Positions 2 to 10,507 of a DNA stretch of 10,507 nucleotides are shown piece after piece; within the stretch, counting starts at the first letter, position 1; each line of letters starts with the position of its first letter. A program made the position numbers and the translations under genes. The DNA lies in UHGV virus genome UHGV-0194914, one strand, 5' to 3'. Source of the DNA: a virus. Below the pieces are notes generated by a model. The model had not been told where the DNA came from. It was given only the letters and a program-made list of their open reading frames with translations, and searched no databases.

Positions 2-1426
2 GATGGGAAAAATTACCTAATGTTAGCACTGGTGATGGTTGGCAGTGCGCTGGTGATCGCCTTAGGGTTAGGTAAGCTGTTTGGCTGGGATATTGGCCTG
101 ACGGCCGGTATGTTAGCAGGCTCTATGACGTCGACACCGGTTCTGGTCGGTGCTGGCGATACACTGCGTCATTCCGGCATGGAAAGCAGGCAGCTCTCAC
201 TGGCACTGGATAATCTGAGCCTCGGGTATGCCTTAACCTATTTAATCGGTCTGGTGAGTTTGATTGTTGGTGCGCGTTACTTGCCGAAATTGCAGCATCA
301 GGACTTACAGACCAGCGCCCAGCAAATCGCCCGCGAACGTGGCCTGGACACTGATGCCAACCGTAAGGTTTATTTACCGGTGATCCGCGCCTATCGCGTC
401 GGCCCGGAACTGGTGGCCTGGACCGACGGCAAAAATCTGCGTGAACTGGGTATTTATCGACAAACCGGCTGCTACATTGAACGTATTCGACGTAACGGGA
501 TTCTGGCAAATCCAGACGGTGATGCCGTGCTACAAATGGGCGATGAAATAGCGTTGGTAGGCTATCCCGACGCCCATGCCCGACTCGATCCCAGCTTCCG
601 TAACGGTAAAGAAGTTTTCGATCGTGACCTTCTCGACATGCGTATCGTCACTGAAGAAGTGGTCGTTAAAAACCATAACGCTGTAGGTAAACGTCTCGCA
701 CAACTGAAGTTGACCGATCACGGTTGCTTCCTTAACCGCGTCATTCGTAGCCAGATTGAGATGCCGATAGATGACAACGTCGTGCTTAACAAAGGTGACG
801 TTTTACAAGTCAGCGGCGATGCCCGCCGCGTAAAAACCATCGCCGATCGCATCGGCTTTATCTCGATTCACAGCCAGGTCACTGACCTGCTGGCATTCTG
901 CGCCTTCTTTGTTATTGGGCTGATGATCGGGATGATCACCTTCCAGTTCAGCACATTCAGTTTCGGCATGGGGAACGCTGCCGGGTTGTTATTCGCCGGA
1001 ATTATGCTGGGCTTTATGCGTGCTAACCACCCGACCTTCGGTTACATTCCGCAGGGTGCATTAAGCATGGTGAAAGAGTTCGGCTTGATGGTGTTTATGG
1101 CAGGCGTTGGTCTGAGCGCCGGTAGCGGTATTAATAACGGCCTGGGCGCGATTGGCGGTCAGATGTTGATTGCCGGATTGATTGTCAGTCTGGTGCCCGT
1201 GGTTATCTGTTTCTTGTTCGGTGCTTATGTATTGCGAATGAACCGCGCGCTGTTGTTCGGCGCAATGATGGGCGCACGTACCTGCGCGCCGGCAATGGAG
1301 ATCATCAGTGATACAGCTCGCAGTAACATCCCGGCGCTGGGCTATGCGGGCACCTATGCAATCGCCAACGTCCTGCTGACGCTGGCAGGGACAATCATCG
1401 TCATGGTATGGCCAGGATTAGGATAA
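2..1426 (+). CDS. ybjL: Putative transport protein YbjL (AAE-family transporter with two central TrkA-C/RCK_C-like soluble domains); 5'-partial, as the reading frame is open from the window start
   Basis: Long ORF (track 20..1426) whose frame stays open back to base 2 (DGKNY precedes the first Met). Hydrophobic membrane segments at both ends flank a soluble middle region with a duplicated motif (..[21 protein letters not shown].. / ..[15 protein letters not shown]..). Matches enterobacterial YbjL from memory; no search run. Confidence 0.88.
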
Positions 1427-1538
1427 AACTGAAGTTGCCCTGAAAATGAAATTTTTTTGCACAACCGCAGAACTTTTCCGCAGGGCATCAGTCTTAATTA
1501 GTGCCACTGCTTTTCTTTGATGTCCCCATTTTGTGGAG

Positions 1539-1583
1539 CCCATCAACCCCGCCATTTCGGTTCAAGGTTGATGGGTTTTTTGT
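1539..1583 (+). terminator. Candidate rho-independent terminator downstream of ybjL
   Basis: Perfect 10-bp inverted repeat cccatcaacc (1539-1548) / ggttgatggg (1566-1575) with a 17-nt loop, followed directly by tttttt (1576-1581). The T-run is on the + strand, so it would terminate ybjL-direction transcripts. Confidence 0.5.
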
Positions 1584-1661
1584 TGCCTGAAATTTAAGCT
1601 GTTTAAATTCATGATGTTAGAAACACTGTTTTTTAATGATGGCGACAAAATGGCGGCAGCG

Positions 1662-1880
1662 TCAAAGAGAGAGCGCCACCTGTCCTGATTTCATTGGATG
1701 CGGCTGAACCGGATTTGACTCTTTTGGCGTTGCAATCGAACGAACAAAAGTTTCATGGGTAACAAAAGTATGGCTGCAGTTAATGTTCTGGCACTGGTTG
1801 TAACGCTCTTTGGTCAATGAAGATACCTGAAAACTGCTGCGAGTATGGGCGGCACTTCCACACAGTGGGCAAATCATCAT
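1662..1880 (-). CDS. ogr: Ogr-type zinc-finger late-gene transcription activator (P2 Ogr / 186 B family)
   Basis: ORF 1662..1913; the likely start is Met12 (MMICPLCGSAAH..). It carries a CxxC..(x)..CxxxxC zinc-binding pattern (CPLCG ... CQNINC) and is ~72 aa, matching P2 Ogr (MFHCPLCQHAAH..CQNVNC) from memory. It sits immediately downstream of D, as in P2. Confidence 0.82.
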   Translation of the reverse strand: MMICPLCGSAAHTRSSFQVSSLTKERYNQCQNINCSHTFVTHETFVRSIATPKESNPVQPHPMKSGQVALSL

Positions 1881-1970
1881 TTTTCGAGTTCTCCCCATTT
1901 TTGCTAAATTCACAATAATGATACCGCATTATTCCATTTTGCAAACTTAAAAGTTCTCCATTGCGAAGAA

Positions 1971-3071
1971 TCATTCCATTTCGAAATCATCAATCCTCAC
2001 TTCAAGCTCCAGACTGGTTGTAAAACCGTTATCGGGGCTGACGGTATGCGTCAGAGTCGTAATGGTCCATTCCGCATCATCTATCGGCTGTTTAAAGCCA
2101 CTGACTTTCACTGGCATTTCCGTGTAGAGATCTGCCCGACCTTCTGCCAGTTGTAGCGAGAATGACGCAACGCCGCGTTGCAGGCGTTCCCACTGCATTT
2201 TCGCCGCCCGTTCGGCGTTGCTCCGGTTGGCATAGGTGCGATTAAGTACCAGCACGTTTTCATCTGTACCCACCAGGTAATCGCCCTGCTTCGCTTCCGG
2301 CTCTTTCTTCTGCTTCTTAGTCCTGCGCTTACGCTTCACCGTGGTACTTTCTTTCTTCGCAGGTTCGCGGGTATGCAACCAGCTGGCAATTACGCCCGTG
2401 TAGGCTCCGCGATCTGCCAGGGTAAAGCGGTGACTGTCGCCGTCCTTGCGTGTGATAGTGATCACTGGCAGTGGTTTACCAGTGGCGTTTTTGCCCTGCC
2501 CCTGCCGGATGAATAACAGATTGCCATTTTTCACCGACGCGATGGCACCGTACTGTCGCGCCAGCCGCATCAGAAAACTGCCGTCACTCTCATTAGTCTG
2601 GTCTATATGCTCCACGGGTTTATCTGACAGGTCTTTACCCAGTGCCATCTTCAGCTTGTGCCGCGCGGCTATTTCCTTCACCACTTCCCCGACGGTGGTC
2701 TTATGCCACGATTTTTCACGGCGGGTATTCAACGTTTCCCGAAAATCAGCACTTCGCGCCCGGATAGTCAGGCGGTCCGGTGCGCCAGTGTGTTCAATCT
2801 CGTCCACTGTGAATGCCCCTTTAGGGAAAAGCGGCTGCCCCTTCCAGCCCAGCGCCAGCGTAATGACCGCACCACGGCGCGGCAGCACGATTTTTCCGTC
2901 AGCGTCGTCCAGCTCCAGATCAAGCTGGTCCGCTTCAAAGCCCCGGTTATCCGTCAGCGTCAAACTCATCAGGCGGTTATCCAGCACAGTGGTGATATCC
3001 CTGCCCTCAATACTGATGCTGAATGCGGGAGTTTTGTTGCCTTTGTTAAGCAGTTCAGAGCTGAAATTCAC
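1971..3071 (-). CDS. Phage tail protein D (P2 gpD, late control gene D family)
   Basis: 366-aa ORF with a lysine-rich internal linker (KRKRRTKKQKKEPEAK) and the gpD-like N-terminal motif (..TPAFSISIEGRDITT..). Its start overlaps the stop of the upstream U gene, and it follows U as in P2. Confidence 0.85.
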   Translation of the reverse strand: MNFSSELLNKGNKTPAFSISIEGRDITTVLDNRLMSLTLTDNRGFEADQLDLELDDADGKIVLPRRGAVITLALGWKGQPLFPKGAFTVDEIEHTGAPDRLTIRARSADFRETLNTRREKSWHKTTVGEVVKEIAARHKLKMALGKDLSDKPVEHIDQTNESDGSFLMRLARQYGAIASVKNGNLLFIRQGQGKNATGKPLPVITITRKDGDSHRFTLADRGAYTGVIASWLHTREPAKKESTTVKRKRRTKKQKKEPEAKQGDYLVGTDENVLVLNRTYANRSNAERAAKMQWERLQRGVASFSLQLAEGRADLYTEMPVKVSGFKQPIDDAEWTITTLTHTVSPDNGFTTSLELEVRIDDFEME

Positions 3072-3553
3072 GACAGCAGCCCTCCCACCGTTTTACTGAT
3101 ATCGCTTAAGGCAGACGTTGCCGTGTCCTGCAGATTATTCAGTTGCGCACTGAGATCACCGAACATATCGGACAGGGATTCATCCACTCGTTTGAGCGAC
3201 AGGGTGAACTCAATCCGGCGCGGCATACCGTCGCGGAAAAACTCCGTTTTAGTCTGATTCAGTCCCTCAATCACATACATGCCGTAAATCGTGCCGCTGC
3301 CTTCAATCAGGGGCCATGCTTTCCCCTGTTCTGCCATCTGCTCCAGTGCCAGCAACGACAGCCTGCCGCCTGTTATCTCCGGCATAAGAACACCGGAAAG
3401 CGTCAGCATGTCGTTTTCCGGTCCCAGAAACTGCGTGGACGGACGTCGGTTTACCCGACTGTTTGCCGCATGTCGCCAGCTGCGTTGATACTGCAGTTCC
3501 TGATACGGAACGGTGCGCAGCATAAACACGTACAATCCCAGCACCATCATCAT
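3068..3553 (-). CDS. Phage tail protein U (P2 gpU family)
   Basis: 161-aa ORF, a size typical of gpU, lying between the tape-measure remnant and D. Stop/start overlap with neighbours on both sides. Confidence 0.8.
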   Translation of the reverse strand: MMMVLGLYVFMLRTVPYQELQYQRSWRHAANSRVNRRPSTQFLGPENDMLTLSGVLMPEITGGRLSLLALEQMAEQGKAWPLIEGSGTIYGMYVIEGLNQTKTEFFRDGMPRRIEFTLSLKRVDESLSDMFGDLSAQLNNLQDTATSALSDISKTVGGLLS

Positions 3554-4479
3554 GCGTCGTATCCCCCCTGATCGCTGTAGTTACTCCTGGCTTTTGCCTT
3601 CAGCCTGCGTTCACGTTCATCAAGCTGGCGTGCCACCTCCCGCGCAATATCCTGCGCACTTTGTCCTGGCTGCGTCTGAATGATGATCTGCATCGGTGCC
3701 TCAATCCGTTGAACGGGCGGCACAGTGGCTGCGCGACTCACAATTGCTTCTCCACCTTTCGCGGGAAGTGCCAAAGGGTGCAACGGTGGAAGCTCTGCTG
3801 GCGCGGCAGCAACGCCCATCATTCCGGCAACAACGGCAGCCAGTGCAGCTGTATTTCTCCGGCTGGTCACATTTGCCGGGCCGTTAACAATTTCCGGCCC
3901 GTTTTCACCGACGATGCCAAACTGCCCGCGCGGGATATACCCTCCGCTGTCATACATCCCCGCAAAGCCATATCCCCATGATGGAAAACCACCCGATGGC
4001 ATCATCACTTTACCGTCTGCATTCACCGTCGCAGGTTGCTGACGCGTCACGCTTTCCGGCAGTTTTGCCTTTGCGGCCTCTTTACTGACAATGCCGAGCT
4101 TCTCCAGCAACCAGGAAACGCCGGATTTCAGGGAGTCCAGCGGATGCATGACCATATTCAGCCCTTCCGCCAGTGCCTCCCCGAATCGCCGCCCCATTGC
4201 CGCTGCACTCTGCAGTTCGGCAGAGGTCGACTTAACGGGCGTCAGCAGATCAGTAAACCAGCCCCACAGCGCCTGTACTTTGTCGCCAATCCACTGGAAC
4301 ACGGGCTTAAGCGGTTCGAATGCTGCACTGACGGGACCTGCCGCCGCTTTGAATCCTTCCACCACGCCACCAAGAAATGCGGTGATGGGTTGCCAGTATT
4401 TCCAGACAACCAGCGCCACGCCCGCCAGTGCAGTAACCACAAGACCTATCGGACTGAGCAGAGCACCTATGGCAACAGA
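3550..4479 (-). pseudogene. Tail tape-measure protein (P2 gpT family), C-terminal ~300 codons only; N-terminal ~60% missing
   Basis: ORF 3550..4440 begins at a GTG, and the frame stays open upstream to ~4584 with no ATG. The hydrophobic segment ([25 protein letters not shown]) and Ala/Gly-rich C-terminus are typical of tape-measure proteins. At ~296-310 aa it is far shorter than a P2-type gpT (~800 aa), and sheath, tube and E genes are absent between G and this remnant. Confidence 0.7.
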
Positions 4480-4597
4480 TGATGAAACGAAACTGTTACT
4501 GGCATGGAAAAAATATCGCGTGCTATTGATGCGTATTAATACTTTAACAGCACTCGATATTGAATGGCCTACGCCTCCGGCAGTTCAGGCCAGATGA
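4468..4597 (+). pseudogene. Inverted C-terminal fragment of a second tail-fibre assembly (Tfa) gene, convergent with G
   Basis: The last ~42 codons of + ORF 4091..4597 read [42 protein letters not shown], matching the conserved Tfa C-terminal motif ([22 protein letters not shown]) from memory. Upstream codons in the same frame show no Tfa-like character. Its stop (4595-4597) lies inside the last codons of G on the opposite strand. Confidence 0.5.
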
Positions 4598-5180
4598 CAT
4601 CCGGCGCGGTGCTGGTATCTGTTGCCGTCACCGCGTCAATGTAATCCAGCACAGCGTTAAGTCGGGTGTTTTCTGGCTGCGTCAGCTTCCGCCCGGCCTG
4701 CAATTTCAGTTGAATCAGACTGATGGAAGCCATTGCAGTATCAATCAGCGACTGGCGTTGTGCTTCTGCTGCATCTACTGCGGCGCTATGCTGTGCATCG
4801 GTATCCGTCACCCATTTCTCACCATCCCATTTATCGTATGGTGTTAACGGGGCGATAGTGGTTGTATTATCAGGGTAATCACCCGGAGCTGTGATTTCTT
4901 TTGATTCTCCTGTTTCGGTGCTAAAGACGATTTCACCGCGATGGTCTGGCACATATTCCCATGAGTTAAAATCTGCAGAACGGCAGATTGCATAACCAGC
5001 CTTATGTGTAACTGGTGCATCTAAACAAGAACATGCCGGGATACCGACGCCAACCGCAAGATATTCAGTTGATATGGAAATATATTCCCGCGTTTCTCCG
5101 TTGTAGTTGTAAACGGTAATGAAGCCAGCCTCTGTGGCAAATCCGTTTTCATCCAAAGTGATTTTTTTTGTGGTCATCAT
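4569..5180 (-). CDS. Tail fibre assembly protein (P2 gpG / Tfa family)
   Basis: 203-aa ORF immediately downstream of tail fibre H with a 4-bp overlap. The C-terminus (..[22 protein letters not shown]) carries the Tfa signature. Confidence 0.8.
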
Positions 5181-6694
5181 GCTGCCCTTACAATGTAGTT
5201 AAATGCAATGTTACGTGGCCTTGTTTCTGCTGATGTTCTTGCACTCCTGGATAAATCAAGTGTCACACCATAGTAACTAAATGCATTACCAGTTGATGGA
5301 GCGGCATATTTAACCCCAGAACTAGAACCAACATTAAAAACTCCAGATGCTGAGGAAGCTGACCCCATAGTGTTATCAATCAGAGAACCCGTAACATTTT
5401 GCATAGCGTCAAGTTGTTCGCTTAATAAAGCGCGTCCACTATCAACATCACGCCCGTCATCCCAGCCACGAATAAATTCACCTCGTAAATCAGGCAATTT
5501 ATTTGTCGGATAAGCCTTTGCCAGTTCCGGGTATTCTTCAGCAGAAAAAACCGCACCGTTGCATTTCAGCCAGCCTGTTGGAGGTGTCTCAGAAGGCCAC
5601 GGAACAGGCGCACCAACAGGTAATGCAGAACCTTCTCCCAAACCAAGGTATGTGAGAAGACCAGCTACATCTTTTCCACTCAAATTGGTAAGCGTATTGT
5701 CCAGCGGTTGTTTACCTGCCAGCGCATTAAGCATTGTCGTGGCAAAGTTCGGATCATTCCCCAGTGCCGCCGCCAGTTCGTTCAGTGTATCCAGTGCAGC
5801 AGGTGCAGAACCCACCATTCCTGCAATCGCCGATTTCACAAAAGCCGTAGTGGCAATCTGTGTATTGTTGACCGACTGCGCCGCCGTGGGGGCTGTTGGC
5901 GTTCCGGTGAGTGCCGGACTCGACAACGGTGCTTTTAGTGCCAGCGCATTGTTAATGGTGGTACTGAAATTCGGATCATTGTTAATGGCTGCGGCTATTT
6001 CTTTCAGCGTGTCCAGCGTGGCTGGCGCACCATTAATAAGGGCCGTCAGTGCCGCCTGTACAAACGCAGTGGTCGCAACCTGCGTGGTATTATTCCCCGC
6101 CGCTGGCGTTGGCGCTTTGGGGGTTCCGGTAAATGTCGGGCTGGCTTTTGGCGCGTACTGTGAATGAGGGTCCTGTGCAGCAAGATGTTTTGCCATCAGG
6201 TCATCCACGTACACCTTCAGCTCCAGTACCTTGTTATCCACATACTTGCGGGTTGCCAGCACTACAGCAGGGTCGATTTTCAGGGTGATATTGTCCGTAC
6301 TGCTGGTAATCAGCACCATGCGCACGGTCTGGGTGCGCCCGCTGCCTTCAGCCAGTTGCGGCTTATAGCTTTCCGGGCAGTTGCCCACGGCAATCAATGC
6401 CCCGGACTCATCAAACAGGCCCACTTCACGTATCCACCAACCGCCCTCGTTTTCAGGGATCACCTGTTCAGCAATAATCTGGCTGCTATTCTGCGGGTCG
6501 ATATAAAGCATATTCAGCGCAGCCCGGCGTTTCTCATTTACCAGTGCCGTCTGCTTTGCGTCCGGCGTTGGCAATACTCCGCCGCCATCGCCCACCGCCA
6601 TATGGGTAATTTTTAGCGGCACACCGAGCGCGGCGGCGCTGGCAAGTTTCGCCGCGCCAATATCCGTCAGCAGGGTATAAAATTTTGTGCTCAT
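5177..6694 (-). CDS. Tail fibre protein (P2 gpH family N-terminus; tandem fibre repeats; C-terminal phage tail-collar-type receptor-binding domain)
   Basis: 505-aa ORF. The N-terminus (MSTKFYTLLTDIGAAKLA..MAVGDGGG..AESYKP.LAEGSGR) matches the conserved gpH baseplate-attachment region. Two ~74-aa tandem repeats occupy the middle, and the C-terminus carries the motif PVPWPSETPPTGWLKCNGAVFSAEEYPELAKAY..LPDLRGEFIRG typical of tail-collar domains. Confidence 0.85.
   Translation of the reverse strand: MSTKFYTLLTDIGAAKLASAAALGVPLKITHMAVGDGGGVLPTPDAKQTALVNEKRRAALNMLYIDPQNSSQIIAEQVIPENEGGWWIREVGLFDESGALIAVGNCPESYKPQLAEGSGRTQTVRMVLITSSTDNITLKIDPAVVLATRKYVDNKVLELKVYVDDLMAKHLAAQDPHSQYAPKASPTFTGTPKAPTPAAGNNTTQVATTAFVQAALTALINGAPATLDTLKEIAAAINNDPNFSTTINNALALKAPLSSPALTGTPTAPTAAQSVNNTQIATTAFVKSAIAGMVGSAPAALDTLNELAAALGNDPNFATTMLNALAGKQPLDNTLTNLSGKDVAGLLTYLGLGEGSALPVGAPVPWPSETPPTGWLKCNGAVFSAEEYPELAKAYPTNKLPDLRGEFIRGWDDGRDVDSGRALLSEQLDAMQNVTGSLIDNTMGSASSASGVFNVGSSSGVKYAAPSTGNAFSYYGVTLDLSRSARTSAETRPRNIAFNYIVRAA
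5705..6161. repeat. Intragenic tandem direct repeat, two copies with ~222-bp period, inside the tail fibre gene
   Basis: The motif gccagcgcatt recurs at 5718 and 5940 and ggatcatt at 5751 and 5973, both offset by 222 bp. The encoded peptide units are ..NNTTQVATTAFVQAALTALINGAPATLDTLKEIAAAINNDPNFSTTINNALALKAP and ..NNTQIATTAFVKSAIAGMVGSAPAALDTLNELAAALGNDPNFATTMLNALAGKQP. Confidence 0.75.
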
Positions 6695-7296
6695 GGATTC
6701 ACTCTCATTGTGTCAATAACATGGACCGCCCCGCCTTCATGCGCGGTGCCACCGGAAATAATCGTTTCGTTGATATACGGATAGATCGTGATTTCTTCGC
6801 CAAGATAGCTGGCGGCTCCCACCCAATGCGGGCCGCTGGTCTGCAGATTGATGGACATGCCGATCATGTGGCGGCTACATGGTTTGGCATCGCTTATCAG
6901 TCGCTCAAGTTCCAGATAGGTATCTTCAGTGATGCCCTGGTCCTGCACGCCGATATCCAGGCGAAACGTGCCCGGTGCCTCTCCGGTCTGCCACCACTCA
7001 ATAATGCGGATCAGAAAGCCGAACGGCTCCACCACCCGCCGCACGGCACTGGTGGTCCCTTTATGCTGATGAATATAAAAAGCATCCTTCACCACCTGGC
7101 GCTTGACGCTTTCTGTCCAGCCCTCGTCCCAGCGATCCACAGAGAACGCCCAGGCGAGATAAGGCAGGAAACTGACCGGACAGGTTGCCGGATTCCACAA
7201 GTCACGAAGCGGCACCTGCAGATCAGAAATCCCGCTGCAGGTTTGCGCCAGTCGGCGCTCCAGTGGTGTTGAACCCGGTGGCAGCAGACTATTCAT
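6691..7296 (-). CDS. Baseplate assembly protein I (P2 gpI family)
   Basis: 201-aa ORF between J and H with overlapping stop/start junctions. Contains gpI-like conserved stretches (LWNP.TCP...LP.LAWAFSVDRWDE.W, GTFRLDIGV, AKP.SRH.IGMSI). Confidence 0.8.
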   Translation of the reverse strand: MNSLLPPGSTPLERRLAQTCSGISDLQVPLRDLWNPATCPVSFLPYLAWAFSVDRWDEGWTESVKRQVVKDAFYIHQHKGTTSAVRRVVEPFGFLIRIIEWWQTGEAPGTFRLDIGVQDQGITEDTYLELERLISDAKPCSRHMIGMSINLQTSGPHWVGAASYLGEEITIYPYINETIISGGTAHEGGAVHVIDTMRVNP

Positions 7297-7963
7297 CCGT
7301 TCCTCCGTTGGTTACGCTCCACTGCGTACATGATGCCGCCTGTGTTTTGTTCAGGACCACATCCGCCAGAGGAGAAGCCAGCTCCACACGCTGCACCCCC
7401 TCAACATGCAGGGCGGCAAAGATGGCGCTACGGCGAATATCCCGACCAAGACGCGTCTGACTGGCGATGTACTTCTGCAGGCTGGCTTTTGCCGCTGCCA
7501 TTACCGGCTCTGCTTCCGGTCCAGGATAGAGAAAAATGGTGGCTTCCACGCGATACGGGATGATTTCTGCGCTGCGAACCGTAAGACGGTCAGCCACCGG
7601 GCGGACGTTCTCACTGTTCAGAGCTTTTTCCACCACGTCCAGCAGGTCTTTTTCTGCGGTTCCATCGCCTTCGCGGCTAAGGACAGTCAGCACCACCTCT
7701 GCAGGTGCCGGGCTGGTTGCACTGGCATCCGCCACCCGACCGTCGGCGCTTCGGGCATGAAATTCATAAGCTGCAGTTGGCCCCGCAACAGAAAGCCCTT
7801 CAAAGGCTGCAGGCACACGCAGGCGTAACGCTTCATCGCTTTCCATCACAGCTGCAACGGACGGCACAGCGTCATTATCAGCAGGCGTCACCGTCAGGCG
7901 TTTCACGTTGTAGTTGGCAGCGAGCTGGTCAAGATCGCTGCCCATCGCGTATCCAGCCCCTGA
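7289..7963 (-). pseudogene. Baseplate assembly protein J (P2 gpJ family), N-terminally truncated by ~80 codons
   Basis: ORF 7289..7945 (218 aa), with the frame open a further 5 codons upstream to 7960 before an in-frame stop at 7964-7966. The sequence (..DLDQLAANYNVKRLTVTPADN..FEGLSVAG..YEFHARSADGRVAD..YLYPGPE..LGRDIRRSAIFAALHVEGVQRVELASPLADVVLN) aligns with the C-terminal ~220 residues of a ~300-aa gpJ from memory. Confidence 0.75.
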
Positions 7964-8280
7964 TTAAACACACCTTTTACATACACCCAGCGCGGCAACT
8001 GTCGGCACGCATCCGCCCAGCGCCGCTGGTTGAGCAATTTCACCAACGTGGAACTGCAGGCATTGCCCGTTCCCACGTTGAAGGCAAACGACACCACCGC
8101 GTCATACACCTTCTGCGGCGGCTGTTGCTTCACACACCTTTCCAGCACCCGCTCCACACGTAGCACGTTGGAGATCAGCCCTTCTGCTGCCTGTCGTTCC
8201 GTAATGGTTTTGCCGGGAATGACGCCCGACGTATTACCAATGCCGTCGGTCCAGACAAACGGTGACGGATAAGGCGTCCA
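7903..8280 (-). pseudogene. Phage lysozyme (GH24, T4-lysozyme/P22 gp19-type endolysin) lacking its N-terminal region, including the expected catalytic Glu
   Basis: Minus-strand frame open from 8280 down to the stop at 7903. It encodes ..VWTDGIGNTSGVIPGKTITERQAAEGL..VYDAVVSFAFNVGTGNACSSTLVKLLNQRRWADACRQLPRWVYVKG.., which fits the GH24 pattern (TIGxGHT.. / YDALVSFxFNxGxGAFxxSTLLRKLN..W / RW.YAGGK). There is an in-frame stop at 8281-8283 and no start codon before the conserved core. Confidence 0.7.
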
Positions 8281-8387
8281 TCAGCCAACATGTCATTGAT
8301 GGTATCGATGGACAGTCCTGTCAGCTCGCTATAGCGTTCAATAGTCACATGAGGCGTGGTAAGAGTGATTGAAATGTTAGGTCTCAT
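8272..8387 (-). pseudogene. Cox/Apl-type excisionase and switch regulator, N-terminal ~38 codons (HTH) only; the ORF continues out of frame over lysozyme DNA
   Basis: ORF 8175..8387 begins MRPNISITLTTPHVTIERYSELTGLSIDTINDMLADGRL. The segment SELTGLSIDTINDMLADGRL aligns position-for-position with the P2 Cox HTH (AKLIGKSTGAVRRMIDKGKL, recalled from memory). Residues after ~38 are encoded by the same DNA that in another frame gives the lysozyme core, so they are probably not native. The gene is divergent from cI, as in P2/186. Confidence 0.5.
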
Positions 8388-8512
8388 GATGCAACATTCC
8401 TCGTTTAATGATGATTAATCAGGACGAATACGGATCGTTTGTATTTTGTGAACACCATAAACATACGATCGCACTGTGAAATCGTCAAGATAAAAGTTCA
8501 CTTGGAGTGACC
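8388..8512. promoter_or_regulatory. Lysis-lysogeny switch region between cox' and cI, with a candidate sigma70 promoter for the cox direction and candidate operator repeats
   Basis: On the minus strand, TTGACG (complement of 8483-8488), a 17-nt spacer and TATGTT (complement of 8460-8465) form a plausible -35/-10 pair near the cI start, consistent with face-to-face promoters as in 186/P2. A GTGAAC / GTTCAC inverted repeat lies at 8448-8453 and 8496-8501. GATCG motifs occur at 8433-8437 and 8467-8471. GGAG at 8504-8507 precedes the cI ATG at 8513. Confidence 0.35.
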
Positions 8513-9082
8513 ATGAATTTGGAGAAAGGCGGACGAGGCGCTATAGAGCGCATGGTAGAAGCTTATGGATTCAAAACTCGACAGGCGTTGTGCGATCATT
8601 TAGGAATCTCTAAAAGTACACTCGCTACACGCTACATGCGTGACTCATTCCCAGCAGAATGGGTAATCCAGTGCGCCCTTGAAACGGGCACCTCGCTTAA
8701 TTGGCTCACAACTGGACATGGTTCAAAGCAAACTTCAGGTAATACAAATACGATGGAAGTTGCTAAATATGTATTATCTGATGGTGCCTTGCGTGAAGAC
8801 GGTTTTTATATTTTTGATAAGGGATTTCTACCCTCTACGTTTAAAAAACCTTTTGTCATCACAGATAACAATTCTGAATTTATTTGTGATAAAGAATTTG
8901 ATGATATACGTGATGGTAAATGGGTAATAAGTATTGATGGCGAAATAACAATCCGCGACATTACTCGTTTACCCGGTGGAAGAATCTTCGTTGAAGGTGG
9001 AAACAGATCCTTCGAGTGCAAGATAGAAGATGTTGAAATAATTGGAAAAATTATAAGTTTAACAATTAAGTACGTTAGGTAA
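8513..9082 (+). CDS. cI: Phage CI-type immunity repressor (186 CI family: N-terminal HTH, C-terminal oligomerisation domain)
   Basis: ORF 8507..9082; the ATG at 8513 preceded by GGAG is the likelier start than the GTG at 8507. The N-terminus (..IERMVEAYGFKTRQALCDHLGISKSTLATRYMRDSFPAEWVIQCALETGTSLNWLTTG) is an HTH of the phage CI-repressor type. Its ~190-aa size and C-terminal motifs (..GKWVISIDGEITIRDITRLPGGRIFVEGGNRSFEC..) match 186 CI from memory, not the ~99-aa P2 C. Confidence 0.8.
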   Translation: MNLEKGGRGAIERMVEAYGFKTRQALCDHLGISKSTLATRYMRDSFPAEWVIQCALETGTSLNWLTTGHGSKQTSGNTNTMEVAKYVLSDGALREDGFYIFDKGFLPSTFKKPFVITDNNSEFICDKEFDDIRDGKWVISIDGEITIRDITRLPGGRIFVEGGNRSFECKIEDVEIIGKIISLTIKYVR

Positions 9083-9097
9083 TACCGGGAGGAAACT

Positions 9098-9289
9098 ATG
9101 CTTGGTAAGGTATTTTTTGTGGTTTTATCATGCTCTTTGTTATTAAACCCACTAACTACCTATGCTAAAAATTATCCTTGTTCTGGGAAAAAGGGAGGTG
9201 TCTCTCACTGTACCTCCGATGGAAAGTTCGTTTGCAATGATGGAACTATTAGTAAATCAAAAAAAATCTGTACTAAAAACTCGCGATAA
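9098..9289 (+). CDS. Small secreted Cys-rich basic peptide (63-aa precursor; predicted Sec signal peptide, ~40-aa mature peptide with 4 Cys); function unknown, a moron-like insertion between cI and int
   Basis: Strong SD (GGAGG, 9087-9091) sits 6 nt before the ATG at 9098 and only 15 nt after the cI stop. The N-terminus [23 protein letters not shown] has n-, h- and c-regions with a TYA-type cleavage site. The mature part [40 protein letters not shown] is Lys-rich with C-x9-C-x7-C-x11-C spacing. The region is markedly AT-rich compared with the tail genes. Confidence 0.55.
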
Positions 9290-9475
9290 TTTTTGCTTTT
9301 ATATCTGCGCCTAATATAACAATGAGCCGCAGGCTAACCGCAAAAGTCACATACTCACATAGCAAAAAATAGCCAACTTCATTATGGCTTCAGTGAGATG
9401 TATGGTCGCAAGATTTCATACATTGACACTGGTTATACATACAGTAAAAATGCTCTCTATTGGAGGGCATTTTTT

Positions 9476-10507
9476 ATGGCAGTACGAAAACTCACCACAG
9501 GAAAATGGCTTTGCGAATGTTACCCCGCCGGACGTAGTGGGCGTCGTGTGCGTAAACAATTCGCCACCAAAAGCGAAGCACTGGCTTTTGAGCGTCACAC
9601 GATGGAAGAAACCGAAGCAAAGCCCTGGCTGGGCGAATCAGTAGATCGTCGAACCCTGAAAGACGTGGTTGAGCTATGGTTCAAACTACATGGTAAATCT
9701 CTGACTGCTGGGCAGCATGTCTATGACAAATTGCTGCTGATGGTTGACGCTCTGGGCAATCCCCTTGCAACCGATCTCACATCTAAAATGTTTGCCCATT
9801 ATCGAGATAAACGACTGACAGGTGAGATCTACTTCAGCGAGAAATGGAAGAAAGGGGCCAGCCCGGTCACCATTAACCTGGAGCAAAGCTATCTAAGTAG
9901 TGTTTTTAGCGAACTATCCCGCCTGGGCGAATGGTCGTATCCAAACCCACTGGAGAACATGCGAAAATTCACCATCGCAGAAAAAGAGATGGCATGGCTT
10001 ACCCATGAGCAGATTGTTGAACTGCTGGATGATTGCAAACGTCAGGACCCAATTCTGGCACTGGTAGTCAAGATATGCTTAAGCACAGGCGCACGCTGGC
10101 GAGAAGCAATAAACCTTACCCGATCACAGGTGACCAAATACCGAATTACCTTTGTAAGAACGAAGGGGAAGAAAAACAGAAGCATCCCTATCAGTAAAGA
10201 GCTTTATGAAGAGATCATGGCGCTTGATGGGTTCAATTTCTTCACAGACTGCTATTTTCAATTTTTATCCGTGATGGAAAAAACGTCTATCGTGCTCCCT
10301 CGCGGTCAACTTACACACGTTCTGCGTCATACGTTTGCGGCGCATTTCATGATGTCGGGTGGAAACATCCTTGCTTTGCAAAAAATCCTCGGACATCACG
10401 ACATAAAAATGACTATGCGTTATGCTCATCTATCACCTGATCACTTAGAGACAGCTCTTCGTTTCAATCCACTAGCAACTTTGGATGTTACTAAATCAGA
10501 TTCTTAA
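9476..10507 (+). CDS. int: Tyrosine site-specific integrase (P2 Int family)
   Basis: ORF 9398..10507; the start is placed at the ATG at 9476 (MAVRKLTTGKWLCECYPAGRSGRRVRKQFATKSEALAFE..), which aligns with the P2 Int N-terminus (MAIKKLDDGRYEVDIRPTGRNGKRIRRKFDKKSEAVAFE..) and follows GGAGGG at 9462-9467. Catalytic-box motifs are present (..LSTGARWREA.., ..LTHVLRHTFAAHFMMSGGNILALQKILGHHDIKMTMRYAHL..). The stop is at 10505-10507. Confidence 0.88.
   Translation: MAVRKLTTGKWLCECYPAGRSGRRVRKQFATKSEALAFERHTMEETEAKPWLGESVDRRTLKDVVELWFKLHGKSLTAGQHVYDKLLLMVDALGNPLATDLTSKMFAHYRDKRLTGEIYFSEKWKKGASPVTINLEQSYLSSVFSELSRLGEWSYPNPLENMRKFTIAEKEMAWLTHEQIVELLDDCKRQDPILALVVKICLSTGARWREAINLTRSQVTKYRITFVRTKGKKNRSIPISKELYEEIMALDGFNFFTDCYFQFLSVMEKTSIVLPRGQLTHVLRHTFAAHFMMSGGNILALQKILGHHDIKMTMRYAHLSPDHLETALRFNPLATLDVTKSDS

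Follow-up and report, generated by a model that had tools for sequence, protein, structure and literature searches.

We analysed a 10,507-nucleotide stretch of DNA (UHGV virus genome UHGV-0194914, hereafter the window) that carries a remnant of a prophage inserted at the sRNA gene rybB of Escherichia coli. The remnant descends from a P2/186-type member of the Peduoviridae and is no longer a complete prophage: between the 14-bp att cores, 9.7 kb are left of ~35 kb, ~72% having been lost through three internal deletions whose junctions are named J1, J2, and J3. The complete syntenic P2 gene set, Q P O N M L X Y K ... V W J I H G FI FII E T U D ogr and int C cox B A, is absent, and what is left, ogr, D, U, T′, G, H, I, J′, lys′, cox′, CI, and int, stands in the P2 order. 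The window ends with the integrase stop codon, and the att core AACAAAAAACCCAT is found at both prophage ends in a carrier locus (L004, second copy at 7060–7073, adjoining rcdA) and as a single copy in K-12. Both att cores are intact, with arms 98–99.5% identical to those of the intact prophage; the duplicated core beside a tyrosine integrase that characterizes a Peduoviridae prophage is thus present. Taken together, int, CI, the switch region, and the att cores with their arms are 98–99.8% identical to the intact prophage. The features are listed in Table 1.

Table 1. Coordinates of the features in the window, with the evidence for each.
Feature	Position	Strand	Evidence
ybjL	20..1426	plus	ORF list, gene calls
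sRNA gene rybB, full length	1506..1584	plus	Rfam RF00110, 105 bits
ogr-proximal 14-bp att core (AACAAAAAACCCAT on minus strand), equal to the rybB 3′ end (terminator)	1571..1584		core comparison
ogr	1913..1662	minus	ORF list, Pfam, gene calls
D	3071..1971	minus	ORF list, Pfam, gene calls
U	3553..3068	minus	ORF list, Pfam, gene calls
Tape-measure T, last 920 nt	ORF 4440..3550	minus	ORF list, Pfam, gene calls
J3, reversed tail-fibre-assembly fragment::last 920 nt of T	4469..4470	minus	comparison, BLAST
Tail-fibre assembly G	5180..4569	minus	ORF list, Pfam, gene calls
Tail fibre H	6694..5177	minus	ORF list, Pfam, gene calls
I	7296..6691	minus	ORF list, Pfam, gene calls
Baseplate J, 3′ 663 nt, first 82 codons gone	7289..7949 (ORF 7945..7289)	minus	PF04865 profile positions 112–254/255
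J2, lysozyme nt 427::J codon 83, shared TA, out of frame	7950..7951	minus	three-way comparison, segment ends
GH24 endolysin internal fragment, nt 120–427/474, residues 41–142/157	7950..8257	minus	308/308 identity to 4LV2017 endolysin, PF00959, protein alignment
70-aa fusion ORF: Cox residues 1–44 and 26 residues from out-of-frame lysozyme DNA, then TGA	8175..8387	minus	ORF list, alignment, singleton cluster
J1, deletion junction	8256..8257	minus	three-way comparison, BLAST segment ends, alignment
5′ part of Cox/Apl-like excisionase-repressor gene, codons 1–44/73, including predicted HTH	8256..8387	minus	PHROG 575, identity to intact protein
TGA in lysozyme frame, in cox-derived DNA upstream of J1	8281..8283	minus	translation
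Divergent CI/cox-like switch region, intact	8388..8506		99.7% identity to intact prophage
186-type CI repressor, intact	8507..9082	plus	PF07022, PF16452
63-aa YdcA-family ORF	9098..9289	plus	contig gene calls PF27300; phrog_6000, function unknown
Tyrosine integrase, intact, 343 aa as called in relatives	9476..10507	plus	PF24624, PF00589; 99.8% identity to L011

The two other scars lie to the left of J1. The loss at J2 amounts to ~5.5 kb when compared with the near-intact prophage of E. coli CFSAN064035 (lysB/C, R, S, cargo, V, W, and the start of J) and to 4.6 kb when compared with that of E. coli 52F4; the J fragment aligns by BLAST with positions 17773..18435 of the J gene of reference locus L012, which spans 17773..18681. 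At J3, T is joined to part of another tail-fibre-assembly gene (42 aa, Caudo_TAP, 4470–4597, plus strand), and the deletion took the sheath, the tube, E/E′, and two thirds of T. Even with a working cox, the element would not be viable because of the lysozyme::J and G′::T deletions, to which the sequence-only reading described below made no reference, and the remnant is incapable of replication, packaging, lysis, and tail assembly. A separate zone of divergence lies at 4755–6230, comprising the C-terminal part of H and G, which matches the reference prophage at 79% or not at all, with flanks 99% identical; it is the usual mosaic exchange of host-range modules. At its N-terminus, the YdcA-like ORF between CI and int has a hydrophobic signal-like segment; intact relatives conserve this ORF, which is likely a moron.

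The gene fragments on either side of J1

A base-by-base three-way comparison of the window with an apl reference (L011) and two lysozyme references (L002 and L011), together with the ends of the BLAST segments, places the break between the cox-like and the lysozyme genes at 8256/8257 on the minus strand. The match to the cox-like gene runs up to ...CACCGTTTG and the match to the lysozyme gene starts at TGTCTGGACC..., so that the two genes have a 2-bp microhomology, TG (8257–8256), in common, which is the end of codon 44 (TTG) in the former and nt 120–121 in the latter. The two parental reading frames are joined out of frame. On the lysozyme side, window 8257..7950 is identical at 308 of 308 positions to the interior of the endolysin gene of Klebsiella phage 4LV2017 (nt 120–427 of 474, megablast), and on the other side, window 8256..9440 is 99.7% identical (BLAST) to the apl-CI region of the CFSAN064035 prophage. 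A reading made from the letters of the window alone, without database searches (the sequence-only reading), had placed the junction at 8255–8295; this range contains the real break, which lies 24 nt away from the ~8280 at which the lysozyme core had been thought to begin. The same reading had suggested looking for microhomology by nucleotide comparison with an intact relative, which yielded the 2-bp TG, and aligning both frames with family profiles, which identified PHROG 575 for the Cox-like frame and PF00959 for the lysozyme frame. A terminator-like hairpin at 8283..8263, next to the break, is attributable to chance, with one consensus match against 0.4 expected.

The cox-like gene is the first of the early lytic operon, divergent from CI-int, as it is in the intact relatives and in coliphage 186. 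The Cox/Apl-like HTH predicted for the first ~38 codons from 8387 was right as to the family, PHROG 575 (“Cox-like excisionase and repressor”), into which 186 Apl also falls, and short as to the extent, the Cox part being 44 codons long. The 70-aa ORF matches this 71-position profile with its residues 1–46 only (E 3.8e-18), while the intact 73-aa relative covers positions 1–68 of 71 (E 6e-31); the window ORF is thus a truncated rather than a full-length member, in which the last ~25 profile positions are absent. Its Cox residues 1–44 are 100% identical to the intact 73-aa protein (P0056), a form present on at least 1000 contigs. In a search of 5.8 billion proteins, all 606 relatives of the 70-aa ORF align with its first 63% only, and no homologue of its 26-residue C-terminal tail was found. 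The fusion protein forms a singleton cluster (P0001), its tail being unique from residue 45 on. That it might be a complete, conserved small protein, which the sequence-only reading had named as the alternative, is thus contradicted, its relatives matching the first 44 residues only. No Pfam model matches the Cox-like protein, intact or truncated, and PHROGs are needed to place it; a PDB sequence search with it returned a designed repeat protein and a chance match only, and P2 Cox was not recovered. AlphaFold2 in single-sequence mode modelled the intact Cox-like protein with a mean pLDDT of 51.7, too poor for a fold search or an estimate of fold loss, and the available homologues are nearly identical, so that a deeper alignment for structure prediction could not be built.

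The lysozyme frame, read from 8280 downward, matches Pfam PF00959 (Phage_lysozyme) with an E value of 2.3e-30 over profile positions 10–122 of 125, and also PHROG 7 (endolysin). The GH24 core reported from ~8280 in another frame is borne out by this match, with the correction that the real lysozyme DNA starts at 8257: the first eight residues in the PF00959 alignment are fortuitous cox-derived sequence, the “WTPYPSPF” that follows the TGA being out-of-frame cox DNA with a chance likeness to the lysozyme “QPYQCSAG.” The in-frame stop reported ahead of the lysozyme frame was found by translation, as given in Table 1. T4-type and SAR endolysins of the GH24 family share the catalytic motif Glu-8aa-Asp/Cys-5aa-Thr. 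In the full-length relatives of the window lysozyme, it reads E28-8aa-C37-5aa-T43 (157-aa numbering) and follows an N-terminal hydrophobic segment. The fragment spans V41 to D142: neither the start codon nor the hydrophobic segment is left, the motif has lost its Glu and Cys, and the last 15 codons are gone, in agreement with the earlier statement that the N-terminal catalytic region is missing. Neither the whole ORF nor the catalytic motif of a GH24 enzyme is therefore found in the window. An ORF of 84–87 aa within this DNA has also been called as a “lysozyme” gene.

Extent of the deletion and comparison with known prophages

In the near-intact prophage of E. coli CFSAN064035, which occupies the same site (rcdA-rybB-ybjL), the breakpoints of J1 are 14,283 bp apart, as calculated from positions 20251 and 34533 of locus L011 with the shared TG allowed for. 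The remaining codons of the cox-like gene and the 5′ end of the lysozyme gene fall into this interval, and so do cII, fil, DUF5347, DUF2732, a TraR/DksA-like gene, and dam; replication endonuclease A, a DinI-like gene, cos, and the portal, terminase, scaffold, and capsid genes; and the genes for the terminase small subunit, L, X, and the holin. The same gene order separates the two breakpoints by ~15.5 kb in the isolated Klebsiella phage 4LV2017 and by ~15 kb (across cos) in phage 186. The view that replication, cos, capsid/terminase, and holin genes normally lie between cox and lysozyme, stated in the sequence-only reading, is borne out by the CFSAN064035 prophage, and this distance upholds the very large deletion that had been deduced from it, by which a P2-type prophage had its cox/apl gene fused to internal GH24 lysozyme sequence. 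We found no intact relative in which the lysozyme gene adjoins cox.

P2-like prophages have been documented at the rybB gene in the E. coli strains W, B (REL606/BL21), and Crooks (Archer et al. 2011, PMC3032704). These “Rybb” prophages share with the window the site (rybB, between rcdA and ybjL) and the phage type, and the window segment between cox and CI matches the BL21(DE3) immunity region at 98.4% identity; unlike them, the window copy lacks ~72% of the prophage through its three internal deletions. An immunity region of the window type is present in 539 of 5,426 (~10%) complete E. coli genomes. Coliphage 186 (Eganvirus; int-cI-apl-cII-fil) has the same divergent CI/Cox-Apl layout, and its gene order is that of the intact relatives. 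The two CI repressors have both Pfam domains in common, with 32% identity over 175 aa, whereas the Cox-like protein (73 aa) and 186 Apl (87 aa) give a BLAST match of 20 residues only, the GH24 endolysin is unrelated to 186 P and P2 K, and 186 integrates at ileY rather than rybB. Phage 4LV2017 (Elveevirus, Peduoviridae), whose endolysin gene is 100% identical to the 308-nt fragment, has a Cox-like protein with 85% identity to the intact 73-aa form; unlike the window, it is a complete 33.5-kb phage in which cox and the endolysin gene are ~15.5 kb apart. The ogr-D′ element at cyaR of K-12, a cryptic P2 remnant (PMC3032704, Table 2), is likewise of P2 type, reduced to a few genes by deletion and fixed in the chromosome; it keeps only ogr and part of D, whereas the window keeps int, CI, both att cores, and about eight tail genes.

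Occurrence, origin, and consequences of the junction

An exact-protein look-up found the 70-aa product encoded on 12 contigs. Seven loci, from seven samples (ENA, JGI, Logan), were read; all share one set of neighbours and match the window at 100% identity throughout the overlap. The carrier contigs reach 279 kb, with normal E. coli flanks (dacC...rcdA-[remnant]-rybB-ybjL...nfsA), and K-12 shows the empty site. None of the three junctions, J1 included, occurs in the 5,426 complete E. coli genomes, and exact-match scans with the 43-nt J1 sequence found it neither in GTDB species representatives nor in IMG/VR viral contigs or JGI metagenome contigs; either the carrier lineage is rare or the scanned collections do not index it. 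By their absence from the complete genomes, the three exact junctions become convenient markers of the E. coli lineage that carries them.

This distribution bears on whether J1 exists in nature at all. A chimeric misassembly of metagenomic reads from two places of the prophage would accord with the absence of J1 from the complete genomes and the three scans and with the 100% identity of the window to metagenome-derived contigs. However, the junction and its flanks recur on the 12 contigs, which come from different sources and assemblers (ENA, JGI, Logan SRA assemblies), the seven loci read stem from as many samples, on contigs that are long and normally flanked, and a repeat-induced error is not credible because only 2 bp are common at the break; we regard an artefact as exceedingly improbable. 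It is very unlikely, though slightly less so, that the 70-aa ORF is a functional small regulator kept by selection, acting in repression of a lysogenic promoter, modulation of immunity, or control of a satellite phage. Its residues 1–44, with the predicted HTH, are those of the intact protein, the upstream switch region and a pR-like promoter (8488..8460, minus strand, from a promoter scan) are intact, and so are the neighbouring CI and int. Yet its 26 C-terminal residues come from out-of-frame lysozyme DNA and have no homologue, the last ~25 positions of the Cox-like profile are absent, half a protein is unlikely to keep the cooperative binding of Apl or the protomer contacts of P2 Cox (PMC7498355), and CI would hold pR repressed. 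All known copies are identical, so that the fusion ORF gives no sign of selection.

A further possibility, which alters the history of the feature and not its nature, is that J1 arose in two or more nested steps, for instance by an early-region::lysozyme deletion followed by a short second one; in the sequence, a single 14.3-kb event and such a series would look alike. The remnant clearly underwent several deletions, and the prophage found at this chromosomal site in E. coli 52F4 has a fil::lysozyme junction, with the lysozyme break ~30 nt upstream of that in the window. Against this, no intermediate with the alleles of the window was found, and we consider such a stepwise origin unlikely. Strain 52F4 itself was rejected as the direct ancestor, its lysozyme fragment being 95.5% identical to that of the window, against 100% for other alleles.

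We take J1 to be the scar of a ~14.3-kb deletion in an E. coli rybB-site prophage of 186/P2 type, a product of ordinary prophage decay, with a probability of roughly 0.93; no observation speaks against the deletion as such. The deletion, probably an illegitimate, microhomology-level event inside the Peduoviridae prophage, fused codon 44 of the Cox/Apl-like gene out of frame with the GH24 endolysin gene, from nt 120 on, through the shared TG. Lost with it were the remainder of cox together with cII and fil, the replication genes, cos, the portal/terminase/capsid genes, the holin gene, and the 5′ quarter of the endolysin gene. Only 2–3 bp are shared at each of the three junctions, which points to illegitimate rather than homologous or site-specific recombination behind all of them.

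We infer that both fused genes are dead pseudogene fragments. P2 Cox is required for excision. Apl is the excisionase of 186, and such recombination directionality factors act as cooperatively binding multimers and promote prophage excision (PMC7498355). Both 186 Apl and P2 Cox have excisionase and repressor activity and bind tandem repeats both at att and in the pR–pL interval, Apl with high cooperativity, and the structure of crystallized P2 Cox displays extensive contacts between neighbouring protomers (PMC7498355). Judged by these relatives, a Cox protein cut at residue 44 of 73 is unlikely to be able to support excision. Its N-terminus may retain some residual DNA binding, which is conceivable because the predicted HTH is kept and an intact pR-like promoter stands in front of it. 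With the complete recombination directionality factor missing, the remnant is plausibly no longer excisable by the intact integrase, as the sequence-only reading had proposed, and hence would be fixed in the chromosome of its lineage.

For annotation, the 70-aa “Regulatory protein” and 84–87-aa “lysozyme” ORFs should be labelled as pseudogene fragments of a defective prophage, and counts of viruses or inducible prophages should leave the element out. The fusion ORF is found in nr as DAJ81454.1, “MAG TPA: Regulatory protein [Caudoviricetes sp.]”; under this entry, what is left of a prophage in a chromosome figures as a piece of a viral genome. The element belongs to the known P2/186-like prophages of the rybB site, has lost much of its DNA by deletion, and is of little significance beyond annotation. 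It offers a clean, base-resolved case of prophage decay via 2-bp-microhomology deletions, which spared the integrase, the repressor, and both att sites and removed the excision factor and the replication, packaging, and lysis functions.

Other remnants show related breaks. In E. coli O19:H7 730V1 (L010, 5930–6010), a remnant at the same locus has T cut within 1 bp of the break in the window, and T is joined there to H, at the equivalent of window 5511, and not to the G′ fragment. A Mu-like inversion crossover at window 5511 was considered as the cause of the shared T break and dismissed, as there is no likeness to the annotated site of 186. The fil::lysozyme junction of 52F4 (L001, 6905–7367) is independent of J1 at the same rybB site, and strain 01G17CRGN001 has another junction, in which the lysozyme gene adjoins W/J. 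The few strains examined contain several junctions in the endolysin gene: cox::lys and lys::J in the window, fil::lys in 52F4, and lysozyme-to-W/J in 01G17CRGN001. It is a tentative and rather doubtful suggestion that deletions in rybB-site P2-like prophages end in this gene more often than expected by chance; if they did, the endolysin breakpoints could stem from selection that favours removal of the lysis cassette with retention of CI-int and the tail-fibre genes or, alternatively, from a local recombination hot spot.
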